Below are positions 58,801 to 61,800 of a DNA stretch of 64,000 bases, one piece after another. Made by a program: the position numbers. Each line of letters opens with the position of its first letter. Position 1 is the first letter of the stretch. Location of the stretch: the NCBI RefSeq assembly GCF_055900595.2, contig NZ_CM148325.1; one strand, given 5' to 3'.

Positions 58801-61800
58801 GTTTAGCGTGACAAGTTTGCGAGGGTGATCGGAGTAATCAGTAAATAGCTCTCCGCCAACAATGACGTCATAACCATGATTTCTGGTTTTCTGACGTCCG
58901 TTATCTGTCCCCTCTGACCACGCCAGCATATCGAGGAACGCCTTACGTTGATTATTGATTTCCACCATCTTCTACTCCGGCTTTTTTAGCAGCGAAGCGT
59001 TTGATAAGCGAACCAATCGAGTCAGTACCGATGTAGCCGATGAACACGCTCGTTATATAAGCGAGATTGCTACTTAGTCCGGCGAAGTCGAGAAGGTCAC
59101 GAATGAACCAGGCGATAATGGCGCACATCGTTGCGTCGATTACTGTTTTTGTAAACGCACCGCCATTATATCTGCCGCGAAGGTACGCCATTGCAAACGC
59201 AAGGATTGCCCCGATGCCTTGTTCCTTTGCCGCGAGAATGGCGGCTAACAGGTCATGTTTTTCTGGCATCTTCATGTCTTACCCCCAATAAGGGGATTTG
59301 CTCTATTTAATTAGGAATAAGGTCGATTACTGATAGAACAAATCCAGGCTACTGTGTTTAGTAATCAGATTTGTTCGTGACCGATATGCACGGGCAAAAC
59401 GGCAGGAGGTTGTTAGCGCAGCCTCTTGCCACCCGCTTTCACGAAGGTCATATGTAGAAGGCCGCAGCATAACTATCACTGATGAATTCAGGATAGCCAG
59501 TGGCTACGGCTCAGTTTGGGTTGTGCTGTTGCTGGGCGGCGATGACGCCTGTACGCATTTGGTGATCCGGTTCTGCTTCCGGCATTCGCTTAATTCAGCA
59601 CAACGGAAAGAGCATTTATGGCTCGCATCGCGGGAAAAAGCCCACGGTAGAGAGTCGAACTCTACAAATACTCTTACCTGTTGTGCGCTCCGTTTCGTGG
59701 AGCTAACGGCGACGCTAGTACCGGTCTATGCGTCGCACCCTTGAGGGATTTACTAAGGCGACATGCCCGTTGTTACCCACTCAATTGGACCCTCCCCGTC
59801 GCCATCTGGGTCTAGTCAGGAATCGAACCTGCCGAGGGTACATTTGAATGGGTGCCCATTATTAATCACACCGGGCCAGTGCGCCGAATTTGGTAGCGGG
59901 GAGTCGGAAGACCCCGTGATTTTGGTTTCTTAGGCCGCCATCAACATCAAATCATCGTTTGCATTTATCTTTGTGGTCAGTTTCTAAAAACCCGCAAAGT
60001 CGCCAACTCTGACGAAAACTATCGTTGTGCTGCCACAACGATAAGAGCACTCGGTGCATTTAAGCCAAGCCCCATAAGGGAGAATGCTCTTACCTGTTGT
60101 GCAAACGCAAAAAGCCCTGAGCTATTAACTCAGGGCTTTATTTAACGAGTGCATTTATCCATCGTTGAGTCAAATTTACCCAACTTTATTCAATAAGTCA
60201 ATATCATGCCGTTAATATGTTGCCATCCGTGGCAATCATGCTGCTAACGTGTGACCGCATTCAAAATATTGTCTGCGATTGACTCTTCCTTGTGGCATTG
60301 CACCACCAGAGCGTCATACAGCGGCTTAACAGTGCGTGACCATGTGGGTTGGGTAAGGTTGGGGATTAGCATCGTTACAGCGCGATATGCGGCGCTTGCT
60401 GGCATCCTTGAATAGCCGACGCCTTTGCATCTTCCACACTCTTTCTCAACAACTCTCCCCCACAGCTCTGTTTTGGCAATATCAACCGCACGGCCTGTAC
60501 CGTGGCAATCTCTGCATCTTGCGCCCGGCGTCGCGGCACTACGGCAATAATCAGCATAAGCGAATGTTGCGAGCACTTGCAGTACCTTTGCCTTAGTATT
60601 TCCTTCAAGCTTTGCCACACCACGGTATTTACCCGATACCTTGTGTGCAAATTGCATCAGATAGTTGATAGCCTTTTGTTTGTCGTTCTGGCTGAGTTCG
60701 TGCTTACCGCAGAATGCAGCCATACCGAATCCGGCTTGTGATTGCGCCATCCCCATAGCAGCCATCACATCAGTACCGGAAAGGGAGTCAGAAGCCGTGG
60801 CCCGTGGTGAGTCGCTCATCATCGGGCTTTTTGGCGAATGAAATTTAGCTACGCTTTCGAGTCTCATGCGCCTTCTCCCTGTACCTGAATCAATGTGAGG
60901 TTTCCGCAGAACACTGCTCCGGTATCGATATACATTTGGTTGGCAAACTTGAGTGGTTTCACTGCTGGCGTATGACCAAAGATGAACGTGTCCGCTCCTT
61001 TGATTTCTTTTACGATCCCGTCTTGTGAGTTGCTGATTCGTTCGCGGTTCCAGATTACCTGCTGATGAACAACTGGCTTTCCAAACTCGTATTCGTCACA
61101 AGGATAATCGGCGTGGCAGATAACATATTTTTTACCTTTGCTCACCAGTTCAATGATTAACGGAAGTTCATCTGCTTTATGGGCAAGAGCTTTAGCCAGA
61201 ATTTCTTTGTCGTAATCGAGATTAAAGAACCAGCCACCGCCATTAAACAGCCAGTGATTGACGTTTCCACGCTCTGATAAGCCCTCAATCATCATTTGCT
61301 CATGGTTTCCACGTACAGCTCTGAACCAGGGGAATGTGATTAATTCCAGGCATTCAACGTTCTCTGCACCACGATCAACCAAATCGCCCACCGAGATAAG
61401 CAGGTCTTTTTTGTTGTCGAATCCAATCGTATCCAGTTTGTTCATCAGGTTCGTGTAGCATCCGTGCAGATCGCCAACTACCCAAATATTTCGGTATTTG
61501 CTGCCATCAATTTTTTCGTAATAGCGCATCTCTTTCACTCCATCCGCGATGAACCATAAGAACGTCGTTGACGATGGCGTGCATTTTCCCGTCTTTATCA
61601 TCAACGTATTTTCTGACCGTACCGCGACTACATTTCAGTCTGCGTGCTACTTCTGTCTGGTTTCCGTATGCTTCAACGAGCATGTCTGGAATGGTTTTTA
61701 CTGAGAACGTCATGCGGCCTCACTTCTGCTATTTCGCAGGTCTTTGAGTTTCTGTTGGTACTCTGCCTTGATCGCCTTGCACTCTTCGACAGTCCAGCGA

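Follow-up and report, generated by a model that had tools for sequence, protein, structure and literature searches.

A phage-borne RNA resembling the coding piece of permuted tmRNA, carried among stem-bracketed cassettes in the late leader of a lambda-like prophage

The window analysed in this study is a 64,000-nucleotide stretch of contig NZ_CM148325.1 (NCBI RefSeq assembly GCF_055900595.2), in which a lambda-like prophage reads backwards, with Q, the late promoter, S, R and Rz all on the minus strand. The late leader between the late promoter and S holds the main feature of the locus, a 166-nt RNA gene, hereafter the core, which resembles the coding piece of a transfer-messenger RNA (tmRNA). 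The core had been missed by an initial annotation, which noted a 16-bp repeat and a tRNA T-arm-like motif nearby; a small RNA had been named there among several options, and the conserved, structured RNA at 60019-59854 bears that option out. The core and its parts are as follows.

60019-59854, minus strand: the core, a tmRNA coding-piece-like RNA gene of 166 nt (177.1 bits, E 8e-40, with covariance model R1, which was built from phage cores only, with phage P1 absent from the seed)
59962-59930, minus strand: tag-like frame GCA AAC GAT GAT TTG ATG TTG ATG GCG GCC TAA, encoding ANDDLMLMAA followed by a stop
59916-59884, minus strand: pseudoknot 2 (PK2), with stem CGGGG/CCCCG and the loop CCGA pairing with downstream UCGG
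59883-59854, minus strand: pseudoknot 3 (PK3), with stem CGCACU/GGUGUG and the loop GCCC pairing with GGGC

Read from its 5' end, the core consists of GUUUUCG, a small hairpin, a stem resembling that of pseudoknot 1 (PK1), a resume context, the tag frame, a hairpin carrying the stop codon, PK2 and PK3. The tag frame has no start codon: an in-frame UAG lies eight codons upstream, with no ATG, GTG or TTG between. Directly before the frame stands GAUAAAU, a resume context of the tmRNA type (UAAAU before GCA), so that the frame begins at a GCN codon after a UA-containing -5/-4 context, and it ends in a hydrophobic residue and two alanines. The stop codon is placed in a hairpin loop, the counterpart of tmRNA helix 5, and pseudoknots flank the message domain.

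The PK1-like stem, the stop-codon hairpin, PK2 and PK3 were assessed on an alignment of 75 unique cores. Pairing was retained in 93.5% of cells and 15 pairs had changed on both sides, a result reached by none of 500 shuffles, and slid controls of the same structure paired in no more than 44% of cells. The two helices of PK2 were paired in 99.5% and 99.3% of cases, and its loop contact occurs as CCGA/UCGG, CCAG/CUGG, CCAA/UUGG, UCGA/UCGA, GUCG/CGAC (P1) and CUAAA/UUUAG (locus L166). Direct reading of the alignment showed both stems of PK3 to be compensated across subfamilies, the contact being GCCC/GGGC, CCCUGA/UCAGGG, AUCC/GGAU, CCCGU/ACGGG, CCUC/GAGG, CCCCG/CGGGG or GGCUUU/AAAGCC. Both pseudoknots have been re-made with different letters in the subfamilies of P1, L161, L163 and L166.

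The tag frame and its stop are kept in every true core member seen, and entropy at codon positions 1, 2 and 3 of the frame is 0.70, 0.52 and 1.06, respectively. The frame has 10 codons in all close relatives and 10 or 13 in a few deeper-diverged members. The encoded peptides follow the pattern AN(D/E)...(A/V)A, with ANDDVVLMAA, ANEEMYLAVA (HK620), ANDDLMLMAA and ANDEQFLAVA as examples and also ANDNEMRAAA; the P1 core encodes ANDDLMMVAA, and that of L166 a 13-codon tag, ANDDSFEVARLAA, ending in the canonical LAA. The core family is the message half of a tmRNA alone, comprising tag frame, stop hairpin and pseudoknots, and it has been kept by selection.

A search with R1 gave a single match in the window (177 bits), together with matches of 187 bits in HK620 and 84 bits in P1, and none at the late-leader locus of lambda. 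Scores across the core subfamilies ranged from 190 down to 48 bits, with three helices and two pseudoknots kept by compensation. The core was found by blastn in 480-748 phage records, almost all of which carry no annotation there; GenBank and RefSeq give 'none' or 'hypothetical protein' across it. Sorted by organism name, the records belong to Salmonella (272), Escherichia (212), Klebsiella (111), Erwinia (48), Shigella (33) and Felixounavirus (14). The carriers amount to about 750 phage records of unrelated morphotypes, roughly 1.5% of sequenced phage records, and include P1, HK620, lambda-like prophages, and T1-like and Felix-O1-like phages. The core was also present in 669 of 5,426 complete E. 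coli genomes (about 12%), where 568 sites were on plasmids, about 70-130 kb in size, of which one was examined and proved P1-like.

Comparison with known RNAs points to the two-piece (permuted) tmRNAs. At gathering thresholds Rfam reported nothing at the core, and in E-value mode window 59984-59882 matched tmRNA_permuted (22.9 bits, gathering 47) and beta_tmRNA (16.2 bits, gathering 84), while alpha_tmRNA matched the tag region of core homologues (22.6 bits, E 2e-4). In the reverse direction, R1 aligned with two genuine permuted tmRNAs over the tag, the stop hairpin and the first pseudoknot (E 3e-5 and 1e-4). IMG/VR was scanned with two patterns, yielding more than 130 loci, and the tag-pattern scan recovered genuine permuted tmRNAs called by ARAGORN, with the tags ANDEQFALAA, ANDEKFALAA, ANDEVFALAA and ANDEQFLMVA. 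One of these, on a small viral contig (L164, 1236-1585, minus strand), has the tag ANDEQFLMVA, close to the phage-core tag ANDEQFLAVA, and many other genuine permuted tmRNAs on IMG/VR contigs have the resume context UAAAUGCAAACGA in common.

The likeness to the permuted coding piece (RF04321 tmRNA_permuted, RF01850 beta_tmRNA, RF01849 alpha_tmRNA) extends to the resume context (AUAAAU followed by GCA AAC GA), the start-less tag of about 10 codons ending in (A/V)A, a hairpin loop that holds the stop codon, and a pseudoknot immediately following the tag, with the linker ...CCUUGUUACCAAAU..., which is common to phage cores and genuine permuted tmRNAs. The core differs in having no acceptor 5' strand, partner piece, T-arm or CCA; it begins with GUUUUCG and a small hairpin where the 5' end of permuted tmRNA reads GGGG...UUCGAC, and it has two compact pseudoknots of its own. 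With E. coli tmRNA (ssrA, RF00023; tag ANDENYALAA) it shares the tag start GCA AAC GAx GA, the Ala-Ala end and the logic of a message domain with pseudoknots, but only 11 nt of sequence. The proposal that the core is a copy of, or antisense to, host ssrA was rejected: similarity, complementarity and duplex energy were no better than for shuffles. With reciprocal detection against permuted tmRNAs and a host ssrA origin rejected, the coding piece of a two-piece tmRNA is concluded to be the ancestor of the core. On the strength of these comparisons, it seems reasonably secure that the core is a homologue of that piece without a tRNA-like domain.

The missing domain was sought in several ways. ARAGORN called no tRNA or tmRNA in the window or at any core (the window and more than 60 loci, including HK620, L003-L006 and P1-type loci), and the program works in this setting, since real permuted tmRNAs were called on other viral contigs. 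Beside the cores there was no acceptor stem, CCA end or G3:U70 pair, nor did the HK620 genome show one anywhere, and the Rfam tmRNA alignments of the window skip the tRNA-like-domain positions. Among the loci collected by then, no T-arm was followed by a strand complementary to the core 5' end (GUUUUCG or its variants). The complete HK620 genome has a core and no tRNA, tmRNA or plausible T-arm hairpin; a relaxed T-arm scan of it gave one motif, at 23080, which was dismissed as spurious.

The core is surrounded by further structured segments, listed here with the neighbouring genes and signals.

60867-60244, minus strand: coding sequence of Q
60201-60173, minus strand: pR'-like late promoter TTGACT-17-TAAATT, downstream of Q (consensus scan; the lambda Q/pR' region is 95.7% identical)
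60139-60103, minus strand: intrinsic terminator with a 13-bp stem and U run, of HK620 type, in place of lambda tR'
60102-60034, minus strand: cassette A, in which GCACAACAGGTAAGAGCATT (60102-60083, including repeat copy 1 at 60102-60087) pairs with GTGCTCTTATCGTTGTG (60050-60034)
60044-60019, minus strand: 11-bp hairpin followed by UUUUCG, scored terminator-like, abutting the core 5' end
59854-59775, minus strand: cassette C, with variant arms CACCCATTCAAATGTACCCTC and GGAGGGTCCAATTGAGTGGGT covarying with those of L003 and L004
59774-59687, minus strand: 'Y2', an 88-nt conserved structured segment including the hairpin GCTCC-ACGAAAC-GGAGC (59703-59687)
59686-59598, minus strand: cassette B, with a 5' arm including repeat copy 2 (59686-59671) and the 3' arm TGCTCTTTCCGTTGTGC (59614-59598)
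59275-58952, minus strand: S

Alignment with lambda matched window 60400-60144 to Q/pR' (95.7% identity) and 59614-59200 to the leader and S (97.1%), confirming that non-lambda sequence lies between the pR'/terminator region and S. The description of this sequence as a 400-bp insertion was correct as to extra sequence being present but too simple, as about 529 bp of the window stand in place of about 237 bp of lambda, with a 21-nt arm as the sole shared middle part. The terminator hairpin next to pR' is also found after pR' in HK620 and is unlike lambda tR' in alignment, the 56 nt past the second repeat copy (59670-59615) are likewise unlike lambda, and lambda homology resumes at the cassette B 3' arm TGCTCTTTCCGTTGTGC. 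Lambda has one copy of the repeat sequence, immediately 3' of tR'. The initial annotation was also right that lambdoid phages carry tRNA genes at this position, tRNA-Thr and tRNA-Asn being found there in the late leader of mEp506.

The 16-mer CTCTTACCTGTTGTGC was confirmed to occur exactly twice in the window, on the plus strand at 59671-59686 and 60087-60102, against a chance expectation of 0.02 and with two matches in none of 100 shuffles. Its minus-strand form (GCACAACAGGTAAGAG) serves as the 5' arm in a long, imperfectly paired stem, each copy having its own 3' partner (60050-60034 and 59614-59598). Among the related loci collected, at least 67 different cargos, 32-173 nt in length, are enclosed by the conserved arms, which in many phages also flank cores and tRNA genes; the arm variants are compensated, as in AGGTAAGCTGCT/GGCAGCTTTCCG, AGATAATTGCAT/GTGCAATTATCG and TGTAACGACGCT/AGCGTCGTTACA. 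Because each copy has its own partner and the arms recur with compensated variants around varied cargos, the repeat is a structural and recombinational module boundary, and neither a target-site duplication nor the scar of an insertion. A miniature inverted-repeat transposable element or insertion-sequence-derived element, landing in the lambda leader with a 16-bp target duplication, would account for a perfect direct repeat around sequence absent from lambda. Such an origin is highly improbable given that the repeat is one strand of a conserved stem whose arm recurs with compensating variants beside hundreds of unrelated cargos in other phages, that the unit has neither terminal inverted repeats nor a transposase, that divergence from lambda extends beyond both repeats, and that 16 bp is long for a target duplication.

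The extra sequence was thus shown to consist of small structured-RNA cassettes strung together on the minus strand, the strand of the late transcript. Cassette A has a cargo of 32 nt, which is also found downstream of the core in Klebsiella phage MK54. Cassette B carries a T-arm, GTAGAG-TTCGACT-CTCTAC (59665-59647), a closed 6-bp hairpin, CGTGGG-CTTTTT-CCCGCG (59646-59629), and a tail; taken alone it gave no Rfam match at E<=10. The shared flanking arms were likely the substrate for the recombination that shuffled the core unit into the leader. In lambda itself (J02459, about 44,785-44,865; L002) a single cassette was observed just past tR', made up of GCACAACAGGTAAGAGCATT, 41 nt and GTGCTCTTTCCGTTGTGC, and it is followed by a second long-range stem, GTTGTGCTG...CAGCACAAC. 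The arms are conserved and covary in many phages.

The cargo of cassette C contains a T-arm hairpin, GGCAGG-TTCGATT-CCTGAC (59833-59815), and a second hairpin, and the motif GGTTCGATTCC noted earlier (minus strand, 59829-59819) falls within the former. The motif is a real minus-strand hairpin with a covarying stem (CAGG/CCUG becoming CGGG/CCCG in L070), but one situated in variable cargo outside the conserved gene; L003-type homologues have unrelated cargo in its place. The suggestion of a degenerate or non-canonical tRNA built around it draws on this hairpin, on the lambdoid tRNAs at the same position and on the tRNA genes that often adjoin cores. It is nevertheless very doubtful: ARAGORN found no gene, Rfam gave no tRNA match at E<=1 over 58500-61000, and the hairpin is the first element past the cassette 5' arm and not the last before an acceptor 3' strand. 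No acceptor strand follows the T-arm hairpins at 59833-59815 and 59665-59647, no CCA follows either, and the CCA-like triplet is CCG in L070. The tRNA tools were thus empty here, but the region is not ordinary late leader, as a simple dismissal of the finding would have had it. Treating the arms as an acceptor stem with U8 and a UCCA tail was also tried and rejected; the commonest arm type has CCG, and the T-arms are 3-6 nt out of register.

Y2 shows compensatory changes in one stem (GCTCC/GGAGC to GCCAC/GTGGC to GTCC/GGAC) and in another (GCGACGC/GCGTCGC to GCAGCGA/TCGTTGC). It was found in only nine phage records, seven of which (Bas77-81/PJ16/Sashavirus/BUCT phages) also carry the core. Its hairpin loop ACGAAAC could pair with the GUUUU of the core.

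The long, conserved and covarying closing stems of the cassettes resemble the RNase III stalks of rRNA and T7-type transcripts and Y RNA (YrlA), a resemblance only, and some cargos with T-loop hairpins recall the architecture of Y RNA (YrlA) with no Rfam match to Y_RNA or YrlA. Rfam likewise had no match for DicF, C4 or other curated phage small RNAs, at E<=1 over 58500-61000 and at gathering thresholds over the window.

A small protein gene (moron) was also weighed. Plus-strand open reading frames do exist at 59763-59933 (56 aa) and 59681-59815 (44 aa), and automatic 'hypothetical protein' calls cover homologues in Bas77-81 and BUCT_XGG_PSM_3377. This explanation is barely tenable: PHROG and Pfam contain no family that matches the frames, which lie opposite to the strand defined by the promoter and extend over the borders between segments that assort independently, the length of the core varies over 157-168 nt in steps that are not multiples of 3, and the region is unannotated in most records.

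The surroundings of the core in other phages bear on its expression. In P1 the order is P1ban/P2ban promoters with the C1 operator Op72, 'dicF-like region', core, stem cassette, trnA and trnT, then trnI and ban, which places the core within the C1-controlled ban operon, ahead of trnA and trnT. The P1 'dicF-like region' (NC_005856, L128; 1115-1216) was observed to end in a terminator, with the unannotated core at 1215-1380 directly next, so that it overlaps only the first few bases of the core. The HK620 leader runs from pR' through a terminator, a cassette, the core and a further cassette to the authors' 'tQ'. The HK620 counterpart of the terminator (L129, 15625-15655) lies inside a feature annotated 'qut', with the authors' late terminator 'tQ' about 600 nt beyond, which implies that the HK620 core falls within the constitutive pR' transcript only if the 'qut'-located hairpin fails to terminate.

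Skatevirus and MK54-type siphophages have a strong sigma-70 promoter, TTGACA-17-(TG)TAGATT, which precedes the GUUUUCG of the core by about 8 nt and is antisense to the tail genes. A coding sequence begins 20 nt past the core in Cronobacter phage CS01. Genes for tRNAs often adjoin cores and are co-transcribed or abutting in P1, MK54, L012 and L166; in the last, a divergent core (37-279, 48 bits) starts 3 nt past the CCA of tRNA-Met. Phage tRNA genes such as those of 933W, mEp506 and P1 (trnA/trnT/trnI) share the genomic niche of the core, whereas their cloverleaf, anticodon and CCA are all absent from it. An odd 72-nt ARAGORN call of 'tRNA-Ala (CGC)' was noted at L163 11041-11112, separated by a stem cassette from a core about 110 nt downstream.

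One arrangement, that of L022, has a type B T-arm cassette directly upstream of the core. The whole unit is colinear with Rfam tmRNA_permuted (CGAAAUC/GUUUUCG outer helix, T-arm, small hairpin and tag; 23.1 bits, E 0.012, sub-threshold), the cassette occupying the site of the tRNA-like domain. Judged by this alignment, the layout looks like the ancestral permuted one, with the arms corresponding to tmRNA helix 2 and the cargo site to the tRNA-like domain, although the L022-type cargo has neither CCA nor Ala identity. In about 40 of 112 contexts the GUUUUCG of the core is the outer 3' strand of the upstream cassette stem, pairing with GCGAAAUC upstream of the cassette in the manner of tmRNA helix 2.

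These features raise the possibility of a working multi-piece tmRNA, in which the core would be the coding piece and a T-arm cassette (B or C) would become a CCA-tailed, charged acceptor piece that pairs via the conserved arms, so that stalled ribosomes would be tagged with ANDDLMLMAA instead of the host tag. The tag frame does look selected, and in cassette B the 6-bp T-stem on the 6-bp hairpin gives 12 bp, the length of a tRNA minihelix, with a conserved G.U pair. Such a system is possible but rather unlikely. The candidate acceptor has no CCA, no in-register G3:U70 or G1-C72/G2-C71, and its acceptor-like hairpin is loop-closed; alone, as noted, cassette B is not recognized by Rfam. Cassette B immediately precedes the core in just one of 748 phage records; in the window it is downstream, and past its 3' arm comes lambda leader, not a tag. 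The HK620 core is intact in a genome with no plausible T-arm, and CS01 and the promoter-driven copies have none nearby.

The core might conversely be an evolutionary relic, a decayed and functionless fragment of a captured tmRNA hitch-hiking in tRNA and cassette arrays. The loss of the tRNA-like domain, the highly variable contexts, the position behind a terminator in the window and the confinement of the weak likeness to real tmRNAs to the tag and first pseudoknot all accord with this. It is unlikely, however, in view of the compensatory changes by which three helices and two pseudoknots are maintained in subfamilies with scores of 190 to 48 bits, the intact frame and stop of every member seen, retention in about 750 phage records of unrelated morphotypes, and the dedicated strong promoter of several lineages.

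The reading preferred here, to which a probability of about 0.55 is given, is that the core is a phage-borne derivative of the coding piece of two-piece tmRNA and would mimic the message domain to act on host trans-translation. In this prophage the RNA would be a late product, made only when Q-modified polymerase passes the terminator at 60139-60103. It would then be excised from the leader by cleavage at the flanking stems and at the conserved boundary between (A/G)G and UUUUCG, probably by processing of the RNase III or RNase E type; the boundary fits the preference of RNase E. The core is predicted not to be chargeable with an amino acid, and therefore could not rescue ribosomes alone. It may instead engage parts of the host trans-translation machinery, such as the SmpB/ribosome template-loading step, S1 or RNase R, and thereby alter the rescue or tagging of stalled ribosomes in phage-infected cells. 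Message-domain mimicry is most likely the function, being the most economical.

A parallel exists in mycobacteriophage DS6A, the tmRNA of which consists of the tRNA-like domain only and has no tag (PMC11915505, PMC4131195). A DS6A-similar molecule is a strong inhibitor of tmRNA, perhaps via SmpB titration (PMC4131195, PMC11915505). Both are phage-borne tmRNA halves, but opposite ones, the tRNA-like domain in DS6A and the tag with pseudoknots in the core, which could thus be regarded as the mirror image of the tag-less, tRNA-domain-only DS6A molecule.

Several points weigh against message-domain mimicry. A terminator and a second terminator-like hairpin stand upstream of the core in the window. 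All Rfam tmRNA scores are far under the gathering thresholds (47 and 84 bits) and mostly reflect about 35 nt around the tag. The stop-codon hairpin, instead of peptide selection, can account for part of the third-position variability in the tag frame, and homologues were gathered with exact 16-nt seeds, so the invariance of PK3 and the tag start is partly built in. We know of no host factor that binds an isolated tmRNA message domain in vivo. Furthermore, a selected tag frame argues for translation, which a pure decoy model leaves unexplained.

Because of this apparent peptide selection, template models stay alive, both the multi-piece tmRNA considered above and a core loaded in trans. In the latter, the core would be a rescue template in its own right, the single-stranded resume region of which is loaded onto stalled ribosomes whose mRNA channel is empty, while the pseudoknots dock on the 30S subunit as in tmRNA. 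Loading may take place with host Ala-tmRNA/SmpB on the ribosome or directly, in which case an ordinary Ala-tRNA would read GCA. As a model this appears improbable. Were it true, the phage would rewrite the C-terminal tag (...LMAA, ...LAVA) and the fate of truncated proteins during infection, and template-swapping rescue would take place without a covalently linked tRNA-like domain.

A tmRNA is by definition a tRNA-like part joined to a message-like part, and the only natural half-molecules known to us are tag-less. Searches of the literature for four core tag peptides found none, and those for phage tmRNA-like or truncated ssrA-like RNA found nothing relevant. The curated tmRNA database holds complete genes only, with 79 phage sequences (PMC11915505), and an exhaustive search of RefSeq viruses located ssrA in mycobacteriophages, Bacillus phage G and DS6A and nowhere else (PMC4131195). 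If the preferred reading of message-domain mimicry is correct, phages manipulate ribosome rescue or protein tagging in a manner undescribed in the literature searched. The 'empty' late leader of lambdoid phages, that of lambda included, is made up of stem-bracketed RNA cassettes exchanged among unrelated phages, and these cassettes and the cores have all been missed by current annotation pipelines (ARAGORN, Rfam).

With regard to the wider setting, a molybdenum cofactor riboswitch (Rfam RF01055, 104.5 bits) was recognized at window 24570-24714 (minus strand). Some of the window is therefore chromosomal DNA of E. coli from the vicinity of moaA, as would fit a prophage located at or close to the lambda attachment region. 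A 246-aa open reading frame (60864-61604, minus strand) occupies the nin-region position upstream of Q.

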